Shown here piece after piece: positions 41,453 to 52,029 of a stretch of DNA of 64,000 nucleotides. Below the pieces are notes generated by a model. It was not told where the DNA came from. It worked only from the letters and a program-made list of their open reading frames with translations, and did not search any database. The stretch covers positions 2,401,210 through 2,465,209 of the forward strand of contig OZ253466.1 of NCBI GenBank assembly GCA_965261605.1, in the 5' to 3' direction. Position 1 is the stretch's first letter; each line of letters starts with the position of its first letter. This DNA is from Dehalococcoidia bacterium. GTDB lineage: Bacteria; Chloroflexota; Dehalococcoidia; Lucifugimonadales; UBA2985. Made by a program: the position numbers and the translations under genes.

Positions 41453-42382
41453 TTATGTGCTGAGGAACTTGTCTCCGTTGAAATGGATCAAGTGGTCCGG
41501 AATCTCGGCGATCCAAACCTCTGTCTCCCAGGCGATGTTGTCCACATGGCGCTTGAACTGCTTGAAGTCCGGGAAAGCGGTTACATACAGACGCTTGGTT
41601 GTGCAGTTGCTGAGCGTAGCTTCTAGCTCTTCCACTCTTTTGGGACTCACGGGGCCGTGAGAAGTGACGGCTTCTATTAGGAATAGCCAGTTTCGATCCT
41701 CATCGTAGAGCATCACATCGGGTAGCTTGTCATGCTCGGTAAATGGAACGCGAAGCTCGTCAAGCTTCTCCTGGTCTATGTGAAGAAGTTTTTGAGCGGC
41801 ATCTCCCAGATACAACAGGACTGACCCAGGAGCGAACCTACTTCCGAAGTCTGTCACCACTGCGGCCTGCAGCTTGTTGTGCCTACCTGGTGAGAGGCGG
41901 ATTTCCTCGCCAGTGGAGGTGCGGACAGGAATCTCCCTCATCTGGCGTCTCCTTCGGTATACTTCCAAGAGCGTACCTTGGCTTGAGCGGAAGGCGAGGA
42001 GAGCGGCTTCCCAGGCACTGCCTTTGTAAAAACGGATTACGTTAAGTGCTTCGTCTGTGAGGCCGTAATGAGAACGAGGGCTGTTGGTGGGTAGGTCTGG
42101 ATCGTCTGGGTTGCGGTCAGCTAATCGTGCTTGCAGGAACTGGTGAATTACCTGCCGCCGTACAGTCTCTCGCGTGTTCTCCGCGTACGCCCTGCCGTAG
42201 GTCGCACCCATGAATTGCAGAATCTGGTGAATGGTGAGAGACGGTTTCGATGGACTCCTCCAGGGATCACCCTCAGAGAGTCCCGCAAGTGCCAAAAGTG
42301 TCAGGCAGGAAATATCGTTCTGTTGGGCCGGAGGCAACCCGAATTGCTCAAGTATGTCCCGCGCTTCATCTAGCTTGCTCAT
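41453..42382 (-). CDS. Type II restriction endonuclease, BsuBI/PstI family
   Basis: ATG at 42382. The product MSKLDEARDILEQFGLPPAQQNDISCLTLLALAGL...HYGLTDEAL...WLFLIEAVTSHGPVSPKR... resembles the BsuBI/PstI endonuclease family. GC is lower than in the flanks. Confidence 0.75.
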   Translation of the reverse strand: MSKLDEARDILEQFGLPPAQQNDISCLTLLALAGLSEGDPWRSPSKPSLTIHQILQFMGATYGRAYAENTRETVRRQVIHQFLQARLADRNPDDPDLPTNSPRSHYGLTDEALNVIRFYKGSAWEAALLAFRSSQGTLLEVYRRRRQMREIPVRTSTGEEIRLSPGRHNKLQAAVVTDFGSRFAPGSVLLYLGDAAQKLLHIDQEKLDELRVPFTEHDKLPDVMLYDEDRNWLFLIEAVTSHGPVSPKRVEELEATLSNCTTKRLYVTAFPDFKQFKRHVDNIAWETEVWIAEIPDHLIHFNGDKFLST

Positions 42383-42416
42383 ATTGTAACCAACGATCGC
42401 CCATCTAAGGCTGCAA

Positions 42417-44078
42417 TCAGAGGCCAAGAATCCTGGCAGCGAGAGCATCAATCTCGGTGAGGTCAGTTCGCGGTCGGAGGCGCGCAATTAAAGCTGAGCC
42501 AATGGAACGTATTTGCTTTTCGGCTGGGAGTGGCATGATCCGCAATTCCGTAGCGCTGACTTGCGTATTACCGTTGGAAAGGCGGAAGTAACGGTCTAGG
42601 AAAACGGAATTGAGAAGGGCCGCAAGTCCGTAGGCAAGATTTTCATCTAAGGCGCTCGAAACTCCGCGGATGTAATTTAGGTGGTTCTCCAGCCCCAACA
42701 TTTGTGTATTTAGACAGTGCTGAATCAAGGGCGCGGCCACGAGTCTGCGGTTCTCTTCTTTGGCACTGAAACGGCGCAACAGGACATAGGTTTCATCTGC
42801 CACTAAGAGCTTTCTTGCTCTTGTCGTATCCTTAATCCACTGGGGCTTGTTGATGCTTATTGAGGGCCATTCGACTCTCATGGGATGTACGTGATGCATC
42901 CACAGTAATGGAACTGTAGACGGCTCTGGGGCCTGTGCCAAGAGCTGCTTGGCTCTAAATGGCACCACAGGTCCAGTGGAGATATCCAAGCCAAGAGAAT
43001 GTAGTGTGTTAGGCCAAGACCTGATTTTCTGTACCAACTCCAAGTCTCCTGCGTTAGCAGGAATGCAAAGTTCCTTATTTTCACTGTTCAAGTCCATCAC
43101 AGACTTCAACCCCACCGTGAGACTTTGTCGATGTGCGAGGTCGTGAGCGCCTTTGCTGTGGGTCACTACTACTTTACCCTCATCTGGGGCTTCGCCTTCC
43201 GCCCTTTTGCGGGCTGCTATCACAAGGTTCTCTTGTAGAACGGTCTGGTTTTTGAATACATCCTTACGGGAATCGAATAGATGAATGGCGATGGGGGCTA
43301 CGCTCTCGAAGAAAACCTCTCGGAATCTCCTGAAGTAAGGCCCTGCCGCAAAGCTTCTGGGCACGATGTAGACAAGATTACCAGACTCCGATAAGAGCTC
43401 AGCAGAAACAGCCATGAACAGGGCATAAATGTTGGGTTGACCATGCACTACGGACGCTCCAGCTATCGCCCGTGGGTCATTCTTTGCTATTTTGAAGTAT
43501 GGAGGATTTGAAATCACGAGCCCAAATTCGGGGTGGTGTTTATCGGGACTATATGCGCGAACTTTGGCCTTCGATGCGCCTTGAAGGACATCAGAATATG
43601 CTAAGACGAAGTCATCGTTCATCACGTTGAATGTCATGGTGACGCCGCTTTGAGCAAGCCATTCACGCGAGAAGGCTAAGGATATACGCGTTAGGGCGGC
43701 CAGCAAATGATCCGTCTCATAGGAATCTATGTGCAGATTTCGAACTGTCCCCCTGATTGCTGCTGCCTCGCATACCGCAGCCGATAGAACGCCGGCGCCG
43801 CTCCCCGGATCCAATACCCGCAGATACGGTTGAGAATACGCAGCGCACTCTGCCATAAACCTTGCAACTAGGGCGGGAGTCAGGTAGTGTCCGCCATTCT
43901 TCCGGTCGCCGTGTTTGACGGACGACGAGTAGGCTTCTCCAAGAGTCTCGGCGTACTCCACTGGAGTGGAGCCATCAATTGGCAGAGGAATGTTTAGCCC
44001 TGTCGGGAACGCTTCGGATGTAATGTTGGGGTCCCCCGCTAAAGAAGTCCTCTTGATCGCCTGATTAGTGGTTGCCAT
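42417..44078 (-). CDS. N6-adenine DNA methyltransferase (gamma class, Eco57I/PstI-methylase-like)
   Basis: Motif I is LRVLDPGSGAGVL and motif IV is VISNPPYFK, with GGHYLTP upstream. It sits directly upstream of the endonuclease gene. Confidence 0.85.
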   Translation of the reverse strand: MATTNQAIKRTSLAGDPNITSEAFPTGLNIPLPIDGSTPVEYAETLGEAYSSSVKHGDRKNGGHYLTPALVARFMAECAAYSQPYLRVLDPGSGAGVLSAAVCEAAAIRGTVRNLHIDSYETDHLLAALTRISLAFSREWLAQSGVTMTFNVMNDDFVLAYSDVLQGASKAKVRAYSPDKHHPEFGLVISNPPYFKIAKNDPRAIAGASVVHGQPNIYALFMAVSAELLSESGNLVYIVPRSFAAGPYFRRFREVFFESVAPIAIHLFDSRKDVFKNQTVLQENLVIAARKRAEGEAPDEGKVVVTHSKGAHDLAHRQSLTVGLKSVMDLNSENKELCIPANAGDLELVQKIRSWPNTLHSLGLDISTGPVVPFRAKQLLAQAPEPSTVPLLWMHHVHPMRVEWPSISINKPQWIKDTTRARKLLVADETYVLLRRFSAKEENRRLVAAPLIQHCLNTQMLGLENHLNYIRGVSSALDENLAYGLAALLNSVFLDRYFRLSNGNTQVSATELRIMPLPAEKQIRSIGSALIARLRPRTDLTEIDALAARILGL

Positions 44079-44114
44079 GTGTAAGAAGCCTCAAGACTCC
44101 ACAGCCATTCGCGT

Positions 44115-44714
44115 CTATTCGCTGATGGTGCCCTTGGTGCTGGGCACGTCTCCGGCTATGCGCGGGTCGATGGCGACGGCTTGGCGTATCGCCCGGGCCA
44201 GCGCCTTGAAGAGAGCCTCCGCTTTGTGGTGCTCATTGGCTCCGTAGAGGATCTCGGCGTGGAGGTTCAGCCGTCCCTCAAGGGCAAACACCTCCAGAAA
44301 GTGGCGCACGAGGTCTGAAGGCAGGTCCCCTATGTGTGAGTCTTGGAAGGGCGTCTTGACCACTGCATAGGGCCTACCTCCAACATCCACGGCAACCAGG
44401 GCCAGGGTCTCGTCCAGAGGAACCATAATATGACCCATTCGGACTATACCTCTTCCCTCCCCTATTGCCTGATGGAGCGCCTGTCCCAGGACTATTCCTA
44501 CGTCCTCCACCAGATGGTGCCAGCCCGGGGACATATCGCCCTTGGCGGAAACAGTGATGTCCATCAGGCCGTGTCTGGCCAGCTGCTCTATGAGGTGGTT
44601 GAACATCCCGTTGGGGGTGTCTACCGAGTACTGGCCCGTCCCGTCCAGGTCAATGGTCACGCTTACCTGGGTCTCTCGGGTGTCTCTTGTGAGGGAAGCA
44701 GTACGATTGCTCAC
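44115..44714 (-). CDS. hisB: Imidazoleglycerol-phosphate dehydratase (monofunctional)
   Basis: 199 aa, with RETQVSVTIDLDG, GWHHLVED and GANEHHKAEALFKA. There is no N-terminal HAD phosphatase domain. Confidence 0.95.
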   Translation of the reverse strand: MSNRTASLTRDTRETQVSVTIDLDGTGQYSVDTPNGMFNHLIEQLARHGLMDITVSAKGDMSPGWHHLVEDVGIVLGQALHQAIGEGRGIVRMGHIMVPLDETLALVAVDVGGRPYAVVKTPFQDSHIGDLPSDLVRHFLEVFALEGRLNLHAEILYGANEHHKAEALFKALARAIRQAVAIDPRIAGDVPSTKGTISE

Positions 44715-44799
44715 TATCTATCTCCACGCTTGCTGGAGTCGTTTGGCTCGCATGTCAGCGCACCTTCGGGGAAGCGGTGAGGCTTCACGCGGGCTTGGA

Positions 44800-45912
44800 C
44801 TACCGCAGTTCCGCGATTATATCCTCCAGGGCTTCTACGACGACGTCCGTGTGCTCCGGCTTTCCTACGGATATTCGGAGTGAGTCTCTAAGCTGAGGTG
44901 TGTTGAAGTATCGCACAAAGATTCCGCGGCTCGCCAGCCCCTGAAACACCAGGGTTGCCTTGTCACGGGGCACGTCGAACAGCAGAAAGTTCCCGTGAGA
45001 GGGCCACACGCTGATCCCCTCTATGGCTGACAGCCTGGAGGAGAGGCGGTCCCGCTCCCCGACAATGGCCTCCACGTTGCGTTTCAGATAGGGAAGGTCT
45101 CCCAGAGAGGCCAGAAGGGCCACCTCTGCCGCGGCGCTGATGTTGTAGGGCTGCTTGATGTCCATGAGCAGCAGCTGGAGTCGCGGGTCCATGATGCCGT
45201 AGCCCAGGCGTAGGCCGGCCAGACCGGCCCATTTGCTCAGGCTCCGCAGCACCACAAGGTTGGGATACGTCGACACCAGGTGCGACACCGTGTGCCCGCT
45301 GAACTCGTAGTAGGTCTCGTCAATCACCAGCAGGAGGTCTTCCTCCAGCAGCCCCAGAACGACCTCCTCCGACACAAGGTTGCCGGTCGGGTTGTTGGGA
45401 GAGGCCAGGAAGACGGCCTTCGTGTTAGGCTCAATGGCATCCTTCACGGCGCCCAGGTCTACGTTGTACCGGTCGTCCCTTGGCACGGAGACCAGTCTCC
45501 CGCCGTTGACCTGGGTGCTGAAGGTGTACATCCCGAAGGTGGGCGGGCAGTCGATAACCCCTTCCTCGGACTCCAGTGTAGCTCTCAGCAGCAGGTCGAT
45601 GAGCTCGTCGGCCCCGGCTCCTACGATGATGTGGCTCGAGGGCGCGCCGGTGTACTCCTCAAGGGCGCTCCGCAGTGCATTCTGCCTGGCGTCCGGGTAG
45701 ATGTGGTAACCTTCGTGGCGGCCCAGCGCTTCCTGCACCCGCTTCGACGGCCCGTAGGGGTTCTCGTTACCGTTCAGCTTGATTATCCGCTCCGGCGGTA
45801 TCCCGGCCATCTCCGCCAGCGCTTCCGGCGAGTCTACGGCCTTGTATGGGTTCAACTCCCTGAGATCCCGACGAAAGAGGGATGTGATGTCCATTCTTTC
45901 AGATGCTTTCAT
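44800..45912 (-). CDS. hisC: Histidinol-phosphate aminotransferase
   Basis: 370 aa, class-II aminotransferase. It has LNGNENPYGP and the PLP lysine context SLSKWAGLAGLRLGY. Confidence 0.93.
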   Translation of the reverse strand: MKASERMDITSLFRRDLRELNPYKAVDSPEALAEMAGIPPERIIKLNGNENPYGPSKRVQEALGRHEGYHIYPDARQNALRSALEEYTGAPSSHIIVGAGADELIDLLLRATLESEEGVIDCPPTFGMYTFSTQVNGGRLVSVPRDDRYNVDLGAVKDAIEPNTKAVFLASPNNPTGNLVSEEVVLGLLEEDLLLVIDETYYEFSGHTVSHLVSTYPNLVVLRSLSKWAGLAGLRLGYGIMDPRLQLLLMDIKQPYNISAAAEVALLASLGDLPYLKRNVEAIVGERDRLSSRLSAIEGISVWPSHGNFLLFDVPRDKATLVFQGLASRGIFVRYFNTPQLRDSLRISVGKPEHTDVVVEALEDIIAELR

Positions 45913-45996
45913 ACTTCAGCACTCAGTTTACGAGCAGGCCAACTCGGGCGTCCTGCGATCATCTATCCGCGATCCGGCGGTCGCGGTACAAGTTGA

Positions 45997-47334
45997 CTAA
46001 CCATTTCTGGGCGTCCTGTTCTGTATCTCCGCCCGGATCTCCACCGCGCGTGCGTGGGCGTCGAACCCTTCGGCTCGGGCAATGGTAGCTGCGGTCTTTG
46101 CCAGGCGGAGCGCCGTCTGGGGGTCCAGGTCTACTACCGGCATCCTTCGCAGGAATTCCGTCGCTCCCAGGTAGGAGTTGAATCGGGCGGTGCCTCCGGT
46201 CGGCATAACGTGGCTTGGGCCTGCAACGTAGTCGCCCATCACCTCCGGCGAGAAGTCTCCCAGGAAGACGCCGCCAGCGTTGTGCACCTTGTCCACGCAG
46301 CGCCAAGGCTCTTTGACCATCAGGCACAGGTGCTCCGGGGCGTAGTGATTGGCCAGATCCAGGGCATTGTCCAGGGTGTCCACTACCACAATAGCCCCCC
46401 TTGCCTCTATGGACGCTTGGGCAGTCTCCTTGCGGGAGAGGCTGTCCAACTGCTTTTGGAGTTCCTCCTGGATGAGAGGCGCCAGCCTCTCCGACATGGT
46501 AATCAGGATTGGGGTAGCCAGCATATCGTGCTCCGCCTGCCCAAGAAGGTCGGCGGCGCAGAGCGCGGGGTTGGCGTCGTCGTCCGCTACAATCAGGGTT
46601 TCCGTCGGCCCTTCCAGGCCATCGATCTTTGTTTCTCCGTAGACCATCTTCTTGGCCAGGGTCACGAAGATGTTGCCGGGCCCGCACACCATGTCCACTT
46701 TGGGAATGGTATCCGTGCCGTAGGCTAGCGCTGCTATAGCCTGGGCGCCTCCAACCTGAAAAATCCTGTTCACCCCGGCGATGAGGGCTGCGGCCATGAC
46801 CGCGGGGTTGGGCCCTCGGTCGCCCTGGGGCGGTGTAGCCAGCACAATCTCCTTCACGCCCGCCACTTTAGCCGGGATGGCGGTCATAAGCACAGTGGAT
46901 GGGTAGGATGCCAGGCCGCCCGGGCTGTAGATGCCCACACGCTCTATCGGAGAGATTATCTCCCCGAAGCCTCTCTCCATATCCATCCAGGACCGGGGCA
47001 GGCCGGCGACGTGAAAGTCGCGTATCCGGCCCACGGAGCGCCGTAGCGCCTCCCGCGTCTCCTGGGGCGCCTCTTCTGCAATCCGAACTACGGTATCTCG
47101 GTCAAGCTCCATTTCCTCAAGCTCTACTCCGTCGATGCGCCTAGTGTACTCGCGCACGGCGTCATCGCCGCGAAGGGCTACATCCGACACAATGCGGCTC
47201 ACAGCCCCCTCCGGGGTCAGGTCCTCGCCGAAGATTCTCTTGATGCCCTCCAGCAGCTCCGGCGGCGTGGAGTGGCCTTCGGACGTCCTTGAGAGGGCCT
47301 TCCTGCCCTCGTCCATACCACGAACTACCCTCAC
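45997..47334 (-). CDS. hisD: Histidinol dehydrogenase
   Basis: 445 aa, with GGAQAIAALAYGT and LGQAEHD motifs. The start is GTG 47334 (GTGA overlap with the upstream stop) or ATG 47316. Confidence 0.95.
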   Translation of the reverse strand: MRVVRGMDEGRKALSRTSEGHSTPPELLEGIKRIFGEDLTPEGAVSRIVSDVALRGDDAVREYTRRIDGVELEEMELDRDTVVRIAEEAPQETREALRRSVGRIRDFHVAGLPRSWMDMERGFGEIISPIERVGIYSPGGLASYPSTVLMTAIPAKVAGVKEIVLATPPQGDRGPNPAVMAAALIAGVNRIFQVGGAQAIAALAYGTDTIPKVDMVCGPGNIFVTLAKKMVYGETKIDGLEGPTETLIVADDDANPALCAADLLGQAEHDMLATPILITMSERLAPLIQEELQKQLDSLSRKETAQASIEARGAIVVVDTLDNALDLANHYAPEHLCLMVKEPWRCVDKVHNAGGVFLGDFSPEVMGDYVAGPSHVMPTGGTARFNSYLGATEFLRRMPVVDLDPQTALRLAKTAATIARAEGFDAHARAVEIRAEIQNRTPRNG

Positions 47335-48095
47335 GGCAGATACCCTCTGGCAAAGCTCAGCAAGTCCTCAATGCTCCTCTCTCTGAACGCCGCCACGAGC
47401 TCCTCGGGCACGGCGCAGTATATCCGCTCCAAGGCGTCCGGAACGGACTCCAGGAACTCGTCCACCAACTCATTCAGCTTGTCTTCCGTCCCCTCGCCCT
47501 CCTGGCGGGCCACCCTCCGCGCCATGAATCGAAGCCTCTCCCAGGTGAACTCACCGCCCAGGGAGTTCTGGACCCATTCCCGCCATTCAACGAGGGTTTC
47601 CGCCGAGATAAAGCCTATGTCAACGTCCTTCTCGGCATCTGTCATAAAGGGCTTCAGCTCCGTCGTCCCGCCCATCGCCAGATGCTCCCTGCGATCCAGC
47701 TCCAGCTGAAGGGCGCGATCCATCAGGTTGCCGCGTAGCTTGTCTTCGAACACCTCGCGGTTGCCGAAGTACGGCCGGTACAGATTCAGTATCCACAGCT
47801 CGTCAGTGAACAGGTGACTGGCAAACCCTACAATGAACGCTTTGGTAGGCTCGTTGAGGTCAGAGGCTTGGGCCAGATTGGGGTGAGAGTGAAACAGACC
47901 CTCTATCCCATCCCCTTCCCTCTCGAAATCCAGCGGGACAAAGTGGGTGTCGTCGCGCTTTCCCCTGGTGATTATGCGTATGTCAGGGGACACGGACCCA
48001 AGGAGAAATGCGCCCATATTGTTGTTCAAAGTCGGGTGGTCCAGCCGCGAGGCGGCGTCCTTCGCCATTCCCAGGTGTGCGCTGAAGTTAGGCAT
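47331..48095 (-). CDS. Zinc-dependent phospholipase-C-fold metal hydrolase family protein embedded in the his operon
   Basis: ATG at 48095. The product is MPNFSAHLGMAKDAA...LLGSVSPDIR...DDTHF...FHSHP...FASHLFTDE... The N-terminal His, the SPD, THF and HSH motifs and the HxxxD ligand-like residues fit the Zn_dep_PLPC-like family. It starts 17 nt after the hisG stop, and its stop overlaps the hisD start. Confidence 0.68.
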   Translation of the reverse strand: MPNFSAHLGMAKDAASRLDHPTLNNNMGAFLLGSVSPDIRIITRGKRDDTHFVPLDFEREGDGIEGLFHSHPNLAQASDLNEPTKAFIVGFASHLFTDELWILNLYRPYFGNREVFEDKLRGNLMDRALQLELDRREHLAMGGTTELKPFMTDAEKDVDIGFISAETLVEWREWVQNSLGGEFTWERLRFMARRVARQEGEGTEDKLNELVDEFLESVPDALERIYCAVPEELVAAFRERSIEDLLSFARGYLP

Positions 48096-48112
48096 CGTTC
48101 TCTCTAAATCGA

Positions 48113-49189
48113 CTAGCTTCCGCCCAGCGCCTGGAGCATCGTCTCGTAGGAAGAGCACTGGTCCTGAAATACGTAATGGGCCTGGAACACGGTTATGCCG
48201 CTGCCGCCGATCTGACGCAGGTGGTCCACCGCCTCCAGCAGCCTCTCTCTTGGGACGACGGTGGTCACGGCGTACCACGTCTCCTCGTCTCTGCTGTACA
48301 CCCTGGATATGGTAGGCCCCGTCAGACCCGCCACCTCCGGGCGCTGGGCTACGTGGGCCGCCACCTCCTCCGGCGTATCGCCTCTGATGTTGGCCGTAAT
48401 GCTGAAGAAGTCTCTGGCGCGCAGGTACGCTTCTATGTGCTCCAGCAGGCCCCTGGTCTCCAGTCGCGAGGACTCACCCTGCGCCAGCAGCCGCCGGTTG
48501 CCGATGATGCATGCCTGAGACTTCAGGATGGTCCCGTCCACTATCATTTTGAGGCGGTTCTCCCTCATAGTGGTTCCGCTGGAGGAAATGTCGGCGATGA
48601 TGTCGGCGAAGCCCATTGCGGGCGCGGCCTCCAACGTGCCGCTCGACTGCACCAGCGAGAAGTAGTTCACGCCGTATCGGTAGAGATGGCGCTGGACCAG
48701 CCGGGGGTACTTCGTGGCGACCCGCAGGTCCCTTCCCCGCTCCCGCAGCTCGATCGACAGGTCAGCCAGGTCGCTCATGGAAGTCACGTCCATCCAGGAG
48801 TCCGGGATGCCCATGACAAGCTCACAGCGCCCGAAGCCCAGGTCCTCCTTCACCAGAAACGAGTCCCCGCCCTCCGCCCTCGACTCCAGAAAGCGGTCCA
48901 GCCCGGTAACGCCAAGGTCGGCGCTGCCCTCCTCCACCTTCAGCGGAATGTCCCCGGTCCTCTGGAACAGGACGCTGGTGTCGCGCAGATTGGGTATGGA
49001 GGCCGTGTATCGACGAGGGTTTGGGCGCTCTATGGGCACGCCGCTGCTTCGAAGGAAGCCCAGGGTCGATTCGTGGAGCTCACCGTCGCTGGGGATTGCT
49101 AGACGTAAGATGTCTCTCCTCCAATTCTCCTGACGGCAGGTCCAGAATGTTCTCAATTGTGTAGGCAAAGCCCAGGGCAGGCACGTCAT
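48113..49189 (-). CDS. hisG: ATP phosphoribosyltransferase, long form with a C-terminal regulatory (HisG_C) domain
   Basis: The catalytic core (LRLAIPSDGELHESTLGFL...DLGVTGLD...DISSSGTTMRENRL) is followed by about 105 extra C-terminal residues (...GLTGPTISRVYSRDEETWYAVTTVVPRERLLEAVDHLRQIGGSGITV). The true start is uncertain: ATG 49189 overlaps hisZ, and in-frame TTG codons lie downstream. Confidence 0.88.
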   Translation of the reverse strand: MTCLPWALPTQLRTFWTCRQENWRRDILRLAIPSDGELHESTLGFLRSSGVPIERPNPRRYTASIPNLRDTSVLFQRTGDIPLKVEEGSADLGVTGLDRFLESRAEGGDSFLVKEDLGFGRCELVMGIPDSWMDVTSMSDLADLSIELRERGRDLRVATKYPRLVQRHLYRYGVNYFSLVQSSGTLEAAPAMGFADIIADISSSGTTMRENRLKMIVDGTILKSQACIIGNRRLLAQGESSRLETRGLLEHIEAYLRARDFFSITANIRGDTPEEVAAHVAQRPEVAGLTGPTISRVYSRDEETWYAVTTVVPRERLLEAVDHLRQIGGSGITVFQAHYVFQDQCSSYETMLQALGGS

Positions 49190-50312
49190 CGTCGCCTCCC
49201 AGGGCCTTCACCAGGCCGTTGTAGCGACCGCCGCCGCCCAGGAACACGGGGCCGTCCGTGGTTAGGGTGATGATGTCGAAGACCATCCCTGTGTAGTAGG
49301 CGATTCCCCGCACCAGGCTAATGTCCACCTGCACGGATACGGAGGGGCAGCGCTCGTGGAAGCCGGCCAGCACATCCTCCAAGGGCGTCAGGACGTCCGG
49401 GCTGAGGCCGAATTCCTCAGTCACGGAGCGTATCTGGGGCAGCGCTCTCTCCTCGTCTCCGGCTATGGATGCGAGACGCGAGAACAGCGCAATGCCCGTC
49501 TCTATCCCCTTCGGGTCATCGACCCGTTGAAGCTTGTCGGTGAAGCGAGTCAGGATGTCCTCCATTGTGCGGCTGCCCAGGAGGCCGGTCAGGGACTCTT
49601 GGAACAGGTCCTGCAGCAGGTCAAAGGACTCCGCCTCGTCCCGACCCTCTATTAGCATTCGCAGCCCCCTGGCTGTGTCGTCGGATGTCAGCAGCCCCAG
49701 TGAGCGCGCCTGCTCCTGCACGCGCCTGCTCCCCTCCTCCCCATCCCTGAGGTGGTGGAAGCTCGCAATCAGGAATTCCTGTGCCCTGAGTGATATGCCC
49801 AGACCGTCCAGCATCCGGTGCAGCACCCCGATGTGCCCCACGATACAAAGAGGTTGTGCGACGCCCAGGAGTGTGAGTCCCTCGCGGGCCATTGCCAGCA
49901 CCTCGCCGTCGGACGACGGTTCGTCGGAGCCAATGATCTCCGCTCCCATCTGGTGAAACTGCCTGTACCCTGTCGACTCATCGTATCGAAAGACGGGGCC
50001 GTTGTACTGGAGCTTAAGGGGCAGAGGCTCAGTGTCGGCCCTCTCCAGGTAGTACTGTATGGCGGAGGACGTGAACTCCGGGCGGAGGCTCACCCTGTTG
50101 CCGCCCGGGTCGGTGAAGGTGTACATGCGCGCTGCCAGCTCTCCCCCGGACTTTCGGAGGAACAGCTCCGTAGGCTCCAGAAGGGGCGTGTCTATGCACT
50201 GGTAGCCGTGGGACGAGAAGAGATCCCGCATCCCGTCCTGGACGGCTGTCCTGCGCCCAAGCTCCTGTGGGCTCTCGTACTTCATCCCGGGCAATCGACG
50301 AATTGGCAGCAT
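49080..50312 (-). CDS. hisZ: ATP phosphoribosyltransferase regulatory subunit HisZ (HisRS paralog without an anticodon-binding domain)
   Basis: It has a class-II aaRS core (LRPEFTSS, FRYDESTGYRQFHQMGAE, GGGRYNGL...ALGFAY) and ends right after motif 3. It is the first gene of the his cluster. Confidence 0.85.
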   Translation of the reverse strand: MLPIRRLPGMKYESPQELGRRTAVQDGMRDLFSSHGYQCIDTPLLEPTELFLRKSGGELAARMYTFTDPGGNRVSLRPEFTSSAIQYYLERADTEPLPLKLQYNGPVFRYDESTGYRQFHQMGAEIIGSDEPSSDGEVLAMAREGLTLLGVAQPLCIVGHIGVLHRMLDGLGISLRAQEFLIASFHHLRDGEEGSRRVQEQARSLGLLTSDDTARGLRMLIEGRDEAESFDLLQDLFQESLTGLLGSRTMEDILTRFTDKLQRVDDPKGIETGIALFSRLASIAGDEERALPQIRSVTEEFGLSPDVLTPLEDVLAGFHERCPSVSVQVDISLVRGIAYYTGMVFDIITLTTDGPVFLGGGGRYNGLVKALGGDDDVPALGFAYTIENILDLPSGELEERHLTSSNPQRR

Positions 50313-50394
50313 AACGATAGCGTACCTCTTGGATTATATGTGAAGCATTGTACAATAACACTGGGGCTACTTCAACGCGAGGCGTCCCAGTACC

Positions 50395-50414
50395 CTTCCC
50401 CCTCAAGGGGGAAG
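50395..50414. repeat. Family-D hairpin unit (cttccccc-tcaa-gggggaag)
   Basis: Perfect 8-bp stem upstream of hisZ. Related units occur at 19499-19520 and 27905-27926. Confidence 0.55.
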
Positions 50415-50582
50415 ATTCAGAAGGGGGCGAACCCTAACCACACCCGTGCAAACGGGAATCCATAAGCGCATGTCGGGGCCCGCGTCTGGAGCCCACTGAT
50501 TATTGGTACATATTTTGTCGGCGCATGCTAGCACAATTCACGCATTATTCTCTACACAAAACAGAGTAGAATACTTAATTGA

Positions 50583-51125
50583 ATGGACGTTAGTGAATCT
50601 AGTCTAGTATGGAGGGCGAAGAAAGGCGACGCTGATTGCCTTGCAGAGCTAATCCAAATCCATTCCTCTCGTGCCTTTGCAGCAGCCTTTGCTATACTTA
50701 GAAACCGGCAGGACGCTGAGGAAGCATTTCAAGATGCAGCGATTCAGTCTGTGAAGTCCATCAGGGAGCTCAGGAATGAATCTGCATTCAGGACGTGGTT
50801 TATTAAGATCGTCGTAAACCGGGCAATAGACAGGCTACGTTACCGCCAAAGGGAGCTTAAGCGAATAGAACCTCTGACGGAATTGAACTCGTCTGTCCCT
50901 TCAGAAGACATTGAGATGCACATGGACCTGGTTAGAACTGTTGCTTTACTTCCACCCGATCATCAAGCCGTAATCCAGTTGTACTACGCGGAAGGCTATA
51001 GAACGCCTCAGATAGCGCAATTATTGGAGAAGCCGGAGGGAACTATAAGAAGGCTCCTGAGTGAATCCTATCGGATGCTTCGTCTTCATCTCAGGGAAGG
51101 TTATGAACCTCGAGCATCAGGTTGA
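50583..51125 (+). CDS. ECF-type RNA polymerase sigma factor
   Basis: 180 aa. The region-2 pattern is AEEAFQDAAIQSVKSIRELRNESAFRTWFIKIVVNRAID and region 4 is LPPDHQAVIQLYYAEGYRTPQIAQLLEKPEGTIRRLL. GC on a spot-counted line is about 50%. Confidence 0.88.
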   Translation: MDVSESSLVWRAKKGDADCLAELIQIHSSRAFAAAFAILRNRQDAEEAFQDAAIQSVKSIRELRNESAFRTWFIKIVVNRAIDRLRYRQRELKRIEPLTELNSSVPSEDIEMHMDLVRTVALLPPDHQAVIQLYYAEGYRTPQIAQLLEKPEGTIRRLLSESYRMLRLHLREGYEPRASG

Positions 51126-52029
51126 AGACTATTTTGCAGGCGCACTCAAAGAAGAGGAGCGCGCTGCATTCGAACAACATCTCGACTTCTGCGAGGATTG
51201 TAAGGATGCGCTTGAAGAGCTCAGGAAGCTGGATCTTCGGCTTTCGGAGGATCTATCTACAACTCGTTCGGCGCGCGAGCCACGAATAGAATGGCTAGAA
51301 CAAGTGAAAACCGATCTAGCTGCCGCCCGTCGAGGTCCCACTCGTTGGCTGGCCCCCGTTACCGTATCCGCGGTGGCAGTGGTGTTGGTTGTTCTCCTTA
51401 TTCTCCTTCAGCCCTGGACCAACTCCTCATTGACCCCAAACGAGATCCTCGCCGGAGCCCACGAGTCAACACTGAAGGACACCTTTATCGGCACTATTAC
51501 TGTGTCGGACGCGAATGCAACTATCCTAAAAGGGACATTTGAGTATGCCCGCAACGACAGGTGGTCCGTAACCACTCAAACAGCTTCTGGTCAGATGATC
51601 GAAGAGATTCATGCCGACGGACGGGTCTGGCAAAGACAGGACAAAGGGTCGTGGACTCTCCTCCGAGGGATGAATCCCATCTATACTATGCCACATAACA
51701 TAGGCCAACTAGACTCTATACCAGGGCTGATTGATTGTGTGAGTACGCTTTCAATGGTAGAGAGACTGGGGTCAGATACCTATAGTGGGGTGGACGAGCA
51801 ATGCTTCAATAGGGTTTCAGAAATATACCCGCCTAACGCGAACACTCTGTTGGATCGTTCGGCGGATCATCAACCTGAGGTGGTAGTGTCAGTCTCTGAA
51901 TCTGGCTTGATTGAGACAATCCAACTGCACCTGCAATCCCCGATAACCTCTGAGGATGACACAGTCGTAGTCGACCTCATGTTTGAGGAGTACGGTGTCC
52001 AAGTGCACGTAGAGCCTCCGGTGCCATAA
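51103..52029 (+). CDS. Anti-sigma factor (zf-HC2, single TM, extracytoplasmic domain)
   Basis: ATG 51103 follows GGGAAGG and overlaps the sigma gene end. The zf-HC2 motif is HLDFCEDCKDALEEL and the TM is WLAPVTVSAVAVVLVVLLILL. The C-terminal domain is about 200 aa. Confidence 0.75.
   Translation: MNLEHQVEDYFAGALKEEERAAFEQHLDFCEDCKDALEELRKLDLRLSEDLSTTRSAREPRIEWLEQVKTDLAAARRGPTRWLAPVTVSAVAVVLVVLLILLQPWTNSSLTPNEILAGAHESTLKDTFIGTITVSDANATILKGTFEYARNDRWSVTTQTASGQMIEEIHADGRVWQRQDKGSWTLLRGMNPIYTMPHNIGQLDSIPGLIDCVSTLSMVERLGSDTYSGVDEQCFNRVSEIYPPNANTLLDRSADHQPEVVVSVSESGLIETIQLHLQSPITSEDDTVVVDLMFEEYGVQVHVEPPVP

Follow-up and report, generated by a model that had tools for sequence, protein, structure and literature searches.

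We analysed a stretch of 64,000 nucleotides (nt) from a Dehalococcoidia bacterium (assembly GCA_965261605.1, contig OZ253466.1, positions 2,401,210 to 2,465,209 of the forward strand), referred to below as the window. It contains a histidine operon on the minus strand (44115-50312) which reads hisZ-hisG-X-hisD-hisC-hisB, and the inserted gene X (47331..48095, TGA stop included) encodes a hydrolase of 254 amino acids (P0001) with a phospholipase C (PLC)/P1-nuclease fold that is predicted to be cytoplasmic. X is a real and strongly conserved gene that the histidine operon has recruited from the PLC/P1-nuclease superfamily, and its product is uncharacterised. Between the TAG stop codon of hisG (48113-48115) and the ATG of X at position 48095 lies a spacer of 17 nt (tcgatttagagagaacg; 48096..48112) with a GAGAG Shine-Dalgarno-like stretch. 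The 3' end of X (CCG TGA) runs into the GTG start codon of hisD in a 4-nt overlap (GTGA; 47331..47334), suggesting that the two genes are translationally coupled. This gene order and spacing had been proposed in a sequence-only reading of the window, and inspection of the junctions together with profile matches confirmed both.

The other genes of the operon, all on the minus strand, were assigned by profile matches. hisD (45997..47334) encodes histidinol dehydrogenase (445 amino acids; PF00815, 495.8 bits), hisC (44800..45912) encodes histidinol-phosphate aminotransferase (370 amino acids; PF00155, 193 bits) and hisB (44115..44714) encodes imidazoleglycerol-phosphate dehydratase (199 amino acids; PF00475, 185 bits; NF002116, 274.8 bits, over cut-off). 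HisB lacks a HAD domain and is thus monofunctional, as the sequence-only reading had stated. Upstream of X, hisG (48113..49189 when the limits of the longest open reading frame (ORF) are taken) encodes a long-form ATP phosphoribosyltransferase (PF01634 and PF08029 (HisG and HisG_C); TIGR00070, 171 bits; TIGR03455, 63.5 bits). The profile match of hisG starts at residue 28, so its true start is probably later than that of the longest ORF. hisZ (49080..50312) encodes a HisRS-like regulatory subunit of 410 amino acids (PF13393), for which the top model is TIGR00443 with 213.6 bits, under the cut-off of that model.

P0001 has a single Pfam match, PF00882 (Zn_dep_PLPC), which it reaches with 29.5 bits by a narrow margin over the gathering score of 26.8, and the alignment covers only residues 7-98 (profile positions 2-93 of 167). 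The same domain is precomputed in 85 of 120 X homologues among the matches listed, and X is the sole PF00882 match in the whole genome. None of the NCBIfam models matches P0001, and Pfam and NCBIfam profile searches revealed no homology to the HAD-type HisB-N, the PHP-type HisJ/K or the IMPase-type HisN. A confident AF2 model of X shows an all-alpha PLC/P1 fold and has structural matches to phospholipase C and P1/S1 nucleases only. The zinc phospholipase C fold suggested by the sequence-only reading is thus borne out, both by PF00882 and by these structural matches. In searches against the PDB, Foldseek gave no match with E below 0.4 for X, and profile searches against PDB sequences with two alignments (A1 and A2) gave chance matches only (E ~0.2). 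An ESM Atlas feature search gave a top score of 0.79 with a minority ACP_PD label, which is under the level of a usable lead.

Full-length homologues of X are kept in 398 species-representative genomes, which identifies X as a real gene. All homologues are ~250 amino acids long and stem from metagenome-assembled genomes of Dehalococcoidia, SAR202 or Chloroflexota, where their annotation is either hypothetical or 'zinc dependent phospholipase C family'. The family is narrow, as only 393 clusters (50% identity) in a set of 1.8 billion representatives match it with E of 1e-3 or lower. No longer, fused form of X turned up when such proteins were searched for, although this counts as weak evidence. 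One protein (P0058) joins HisG_C to residues 2-150 of X. It is the product of a single contig and was read as a frameshift artefact, since here hisG and X occupy different reading frames.

Residue conservation was scored in alignments of 30-31 sequences. M1-P2-N3, H7, D38, H51, H94 and D98 are invariant; E99 reaches this level in one alignment and at least 90% conservation in the other. With respect to the His/Asp motifs that the sequence-only reading had listed as likely metal ligands, these residues stand, whereas 'FHSHP' (H69/H71) and D48/D49 of 'DDTHF' are variable. Further invariant residues outside those motifs are R40, T43, R47, D126, R127, Q130, D134, W171, W185 and R187, and W101 is invariant or nearly so. 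The zinc site of PC-PLC is trinuclear and has nine ligands, namely the N-terminal residue, five His, two Asp and one Glu. The N-terminus, H7, D38, H51 and H94-x3-D98 of X are spaced like the Zn1/Zn3 ligands of PC-PLC, which we take to be Trp1, His14, Asp55, His69 and His118-x3-Asp122; this correspondence is based on motif spacing and not on residue-level superposition. In 73 loci the invariant Met-Pro-Asn coincides with the true start codon (ATG, GTG or TTG). The N-terminus is hydrophilic and has no apparent signal peptide, from which X is predicted to be cytoplasmic. Judged from these features, the N-terminus of X itself probably acts as a metal ligand, and X has the appearance of an active enzyme with a small anionic substrate.

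X differs in several respects from the characterised members of the superfamily. Its identity to zinc-dependent phospholipases C (PF00882; Bacillus cereus PC-PLC 1ah7, Listeria PlcB 8cqm and the N-domain of clostridial alpha-toxin 1olp) is 9-14%. These enzymes are secreted, act in secretion and virulence, and carry a mature N-terminal Trp (Trp1) that is exposed by signal-peptide cleavage, whereas X appears from its N-terminus to lack a signal peptide, starts with an invariant Met-Pro-Asn and belongs to an amino acid biosynthesis context. Only the first 93 of the 167 profile positions align, and the C-terminal 150 residues of X are family-specific. The His-His-Glu Zn2 site of PLC is not recognisable in X, as the 30-31-sequence alignments contain no identifiable His counterparts of these three ligands; on this mapping by motif spacing, X conserves E99, D126, Q130 and D134 instead. 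S1/P1 nucleases (5fb9, 3w52 and SmNuc1 8qjl; PF02265) match X in structure and not in sequence, and they are secreted or glycosylated enzymes acting on nucleic acids, whereas X has no known nucleic-acid context. The three known kinds of histidinol-phosphate phosphatase (HolPase), HAD HisB-N, PHP HisJ/HisK and IMPase-like HisN, resemble X in candidate function and in location in his operons. X has no sequence or fold relationship to them and co-occurs with HisN- and HisJ-like proteins rather than replacing them. PHP HolPases also use a trinuclear metal centre (PMC5636811), and the known HolPase families replace one another patchily (PMC5516325).

The position of X is strongly conserved. In loci from genus to order level (42-100% identity) the arrangement hisG-X-hisD on the same strand was found in 30/30 cases, and in species-representative loci (41-89% identity) the arrangement hisZ-hisG-X-hisD was found in 80/80 cases, usually followed by hisC, whose position is kept in 78/80, and hisB. 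All 110/110 related loci examined therefore place X between hisG and hisD, and the embedding of X in the his operon that the sequence-only reading described is far more consistent than a single locus could show. At the X-hisD junction, most of 73 related loci either share the 4-nt overlap of the window or leave 0-8 nt between the two genes. A relative of X with 28% identity is still directly followed by hisD (L179), and in one genome of family f42 (G178) the order is X-hisD-hisC-hisB with unrelated genes upstream and no hisG there. As the adjacency survives at 28% identity and without hisG, the conserved core consists of X and hisD, which encodes the histidinol-consuming enzyme. In an even sample across the class, X was present in 113/201 genomes (~56%) and hisD in 190/201.

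The operon (window 44000-50500) is carried at 95-99% identity by sponge metatranscriptome and metagenome runs from several studies, and the source of the window is therefore most likely a sponge-associated, SAR202-like Dehalococcoidia symbiont. In three runs from two studies, sponge metatranscriptome contigs with 95-99% identity to the window span the X/hisD junction, and one run of a third study holds RNA-library contigs that span hisG/X; such contigs are no proof of a single transcript, and DNA carry-over is possible. Parts of hisZ (49208-49858) are not covered by any RNA-library contig, and no conclusion is drawn from this. This presence in sponge RNA libraries, the X-hisD core without hisG, the motif of a his-linked HAD protein and a presence/absence pair of sister genera (both described below) are additions of the present analysis.

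The genome was searched for the remaining histidine genes as a single contig of 2.79 Mb that is 98% complete. hisZ, hisG, hisIE, hisA, hisH, hisF, hisB, hisC and hisD were all located, with hisH-hisA at 1016427-1017728 and hisF and hisIE at ~1900576-1902702. HisIE (G000:C1:1902088-1902702) contains both a PRA-CH and a PRA-PH domain, the latter scoring 75-77 bits, over cut-off. HolPase is the only histidine step in this genome without a canonical enzyme: none of the HolPase models scored over its cut-off in the whole genome (HisJ at most 26 bits, HisN ~175 bits against a cut-off of 275, HisB-N no match). The sequence-only reading had argued that X would lose its candidacy if a canonical HolPase occurred elsewhere in the genome and X lacked conserved linkage to his genes; since no such enzyme scores over cut-off and the gene is embedded in the his operon, this is not the situation that was found.

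A HAD-IA hydrolase of 242 amino acids is encoded between hisF and hisIE and is translationally coupled (G000:C1:1901363-1902091, corresponding to L056:6364-7092, plus strand, outside the window). The hisF-HAD-hisIE arrangement is kept in 29 loci of the order and was also found by coordinates in families f25, f18 and f19, the last two of which lack X. Motif I of this his-linked HAD protein reads D-x-[Y/F]-x-T-L in 29/29 orthologues. This is a haloacid-dehalogenase-type motif without the Asp+2 general acid of HAD phosphatases. The protein initially looked like a strong competitor for the HolPase role. As Asp+2 is missing in all orthologues, it was downgraded as the true HolPase and is better described as another unexplained hydrolase linked to his genes than as an obvious HolPase.

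On the basis of its sequence features and location, we tentatively consider HolPase activity, the eighth step of the pathway, to be the single most likely job of X. The phosphoesterase chemistry of the superfamily, the coupling to the histidinol-consuming HisD, the elimination of other steps and the weakness of the HAD protein as a competitor partly support this assignment. P1 nuclease, a member of the same superfamily, also cleaves phosphomonoesters. As the substrate and mechanism of X we infer the following. X would cleave the phosphate monoester of L-histidinol phosphate, and the co-translated HisD would oxidise the resulting histidinol to histidine. Once Met1 has been removed, two metal ions equivalent to the Zn1/Zn3 pair of PC-PLC would be bound by the N-terminal amine of Pro2 and by H7, D38, H51, H94 and D98, and an oxygen-rich third site formed by E99, D126, Q130 and D134 might substitute for the His-His-Glu Zn2 site. 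A metal-bound hydroxide would then attack the phosphorus atom, with R40, R47, R127 and R187 holding the phosphate and W101, W171 and W185 packing against the imidazole. Histidinol is an inhibitor of histidyl-tRNA synthetase, and the tight coupling to hisD could keep free histidinol low.

Several observations weigh against X as the HolPase. The His-His-Glu ligands of the Zn2 site are missing, as described above, and no cultured organism carries gene X. The sequence-only reading considered the HolPase step to be unassigned locally, which is true of this cluster, but genome-wide there are other candidates: the HAD protein between hisF and hisIE, two IMPase paralogues (an IMPase paralogue gene lies at G000:C1:1448772-1449512) and a small PHP protein. 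The gene of one of the IMPases adjoins trpS and its product scores ~174 bits to HisN and 167 bits to SuhB, and the gene for the PHP protein of 222 amino acids adjoins xseA; the IMPases and the PHP protein are generic candidates.

The distribution of X points in the same direction. The sequence-only reading had looked to the co-occurrence of X and his genes in genomes that lack hisJ, hisN and the phosphatase domain of hisB; among 190 hisD-bearing genomes of the class (113 with and 77 without X), no phyletic complementarity between X and known HolPases was found. HisN-like proteins (E below 1e-62) occur in 30/113 genomes with X and 7/77 without X, HisN over the curated cut-off in 9/113 and 0/77, and HisJ-like proteins in 11/113 and 0/77, counts that are descriptive because related genomes are not independent and X-bearing genomes tend to be larger. 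For sub-threshold HAD-IIIA the numbers are 11/113 and 20/77, and for any of the four candidate types 70/113 and 28/77. The 49 hisD-bearing genomes that lack X as well as all four candidate types indicate that HolPases still to be identified are common in the class, with X or without it. Family f57 carries a gene for a HisN-like IMPase on the strand of X, 0.6-1.7 kb downstream of hisB and, in seven genomes, 4-7 kb from X, which places it in or next to the same operon. Seven X-bearing genomes have a HisN-like protein and HisE together.

Losses of X show the same pattern. At order level, X and the his-linked HAD gene are both present in most of the family; X alone was found in G007, G016, G020, G025, G026, G031, G033, G035 and G040, with hisF abutting hisIE in all four that were checked, the HAD gene alone in G030 and G036, and neither in G027 and G038. 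In the four genomes without X (G027, G030, G036 and G038) the gene is cleanly absent and hisG abuts hisD. In family f47, G103 has hisG-X-hisD and its sister genus G067 has hisG-hisD with nothing replacing X. The sole case resembling displacement is G030, which has an extra IMPase with 269.9 bits to HisN. An apparent absence of X in G015 is an artefact, as the end of a contig cuts hisD. The comparative test thus does not support a simple non-orthologous displacement.

For the proposal that X is a new HolPase analogue, the fold, the linkage and the absence of a canonical HolPase over cut-off stand in favour, and the lack of complementarity and the clean losses against. HolPase arose in three unrelated families, and HolPases are patchy, repeatedly reinvented and sometimes redundant, so that two can share one genome, as do HisN and Cg0911 in C. 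glutamicum (PMC5516325). In addition, some HisN look-alikes of the IMPase family are phosphoserine phosphatases (PMC13759103). Co-occurrence with HisN is for these reasons not fatal to X as HolPase, and X remains the best candidate for the missing phosphatase, although comparative genomics does not confirm this role.

Another possibility, which we hold with more reserve, is that X is an active metallohydrolase of the histidine pathway that is tied to HisD and acts on a substrate other than histidinol phosphate, in an auxiliary or proofreading role on, for example, a phosphorylated side product or analogue. The true HolPase would then be lineage-specific, the HAD protein or an IMPase here and HisN or HisJ elsewhere. 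X is indeed constant and the type of candidate HolPase varies by lineage: the his-linked HAD in this order and f25, HisN in f42, f35, f57 and f53, and HisJ-like proteins in f49 and f72. The coexistence of X with an operon-adjacent HisN-like gene and, in seven genomes, with both a HisN-like protein and HisE, its loss without in-situ replacement, and the many invariant polar residues beyond the metal ligands, which suggest a specific small anionic substrate, are all in line with such a role. However, we know of no such extra reaction in the histidine pathway, which has been studied for sixty years, and we cannot name a specific substrate. HolPases themselves show co-occurrence and patchy loss as well (PMC5516325), and several of the 'HisN-like' matches score under the curated cut-off, HisN look-alikes having proved to be phosphoserine phosphatases (PMC13759103). 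That X catalyses a reaction outside the ten textbook histidine activities, such as a Dehalococcoidia-specific hydrolytic, proofreading or metal-handling step coupled to HisD, is rather unlikely; it would explain why X is retained beside genuine HisN or HisJ and HisE.

It is improbable that X serves chiefly as a non-catalytic protein that binds a metal or ligand and assists or regulates HisD or the HisG/HisZ complex, kept at a fixed ratio to HisD by translational coupling. The nearly universal 4-nt overlap with hisD would fit this, as would the His/Asp metal ligands of X, given that HisD is a Zn enzyme, and the unusual pairing of HisZ with a long-form HisG in the operon. However, the full set of Zn1/Zn3 ligands, the invariant N-terminus and several invariant Arg, Asp and Trp residues resemble an active site, no fusion of X to a his protein was found, and genes of non-interacting proteins often overlap in operons. 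It is very improbable that X is a hitch-hiking gene with no histidine role. A distant homologue (P0246, 31% identity; L178) does lie outside any his context and X is dispensable in many lineages, but the identical position in 110/110 loci down to ~41% identity and the persistence beside hisD at 28% are unexpected for a passenger. Least credible of all is that X replaces HisE as a non-orthologous phosphoribosyl-ATP (PR-ATP) pyrophosphohydrolase: the superfamily cleaves phosphoester and phosphoanhydride-type bonds, PRA-PH is undetected in 66/113 of the X-bearing genomes sampled and the step ranks as the second commonest gap in GapMind (PMC13759103), but the presence of HisE in this genome, in the form of the bifunctional hisIE with PRA-PH over cut-off, makes the role unlikely here, PRA-PH occurs in 47/113 genomes with X and 22/77 without X and so shows no complementarity, family f35 has a separate hisE-like gene ~1 kb from X, and X stays with hisD and not with hisG or hisI.

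The HolPase assignment bears on a frequent gap in genome annotation. GapMind 2026 lists hisN as its largest remaining gap and does not mention the X family, and HolPase is the commonest unfilled step in prokaryotic amino acid biosynthesis, missing in 42/208 prototrophs (~20%; PMC13759103), which undermines auxotrophy predictions for uncultured microbes. A literature search returned no paper that links PF00882 or zinc-dependent phospholipase C with histidinol and nothing relevant on histidine biosynthesis in SAR202 or Chloroflexi, nor was the X family tied to histidine metabolism. The family is fixed in the his operon of more than half of the sampled Dehalococcoidia, among them the abundant marine and sponge-associated SAR202 group. 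Should X prove to be a HolPase, this step would have a fourth unrelated solution, and central anabolism its first known enzyme of the PLC/P1-nuclease fold. Otherwise, a strictly conserved partner of hisD with an enzyme-like active site would point to an unrecognised activity in one of the best-studied pathways.

Further observations concern other genes of the pathway and the surroundings of the operon. In family f35 a small separate PRA-PH (hisE-like) match was found 1-2 kb from X (for example G224:C97:2559-2813, G096:C1:2481952-2482188 and G139:C11:106373-106627). It contains one in-frame TGA in six genomes, which could reflect two ORFs, recoding or a pseudogene. The usual partner of HisZ is a short HisG. 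In the window (48113-50312, minus strand) hisZ coexists with a long-form hisG that has a C-terminal regulatory domain, and nearly all related loci share this pairing. An exception may be G027, whose tblastn match to hisG spans only ~237 residues, suggesting a short-form HisG. In two genomes of family f57 (G169 and G132), an ORF of 469-528 amino acids between hisZ and X contains two separate HisG (PF01634) stretches (L180:2628-4037 and L181:2990-4576) and looks like a tandem or duplicated ATP phosphoribosyltransferase.

Upstream of hisZ a weak sigma-70-like promoter match is present (50347..50375, minus strand), which is a consensus match only (9/12 positions) that shuffled sequence equals. Scans for promoters and terminators gave no more matches than in shuffled sequence, and an Rfam scan of the whole window gave no match, so that no riboswitch or T-box was seen upstream of the his operon. 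Directly downstream of hisB on the same strand (41453-44078, minus strand), overlapping ORFs encode a restriction-modification pair consisting of an Eco57I/N6_Mtase-type methylase (553 amino acids) and a BsuBI/PstI-family endonuclease (344 amino acids). Divergent from hisZ (50583-52029, plus strand), an ORF of 180 amino acids resembles an ECF-type sigma factor as judged from its translation, and it is followed by an overlapping ORF of 322 amino acids with a Cys-rich N-terminus and a hydrophobic segment, which on the same reading could encode an anti-sigma factor.

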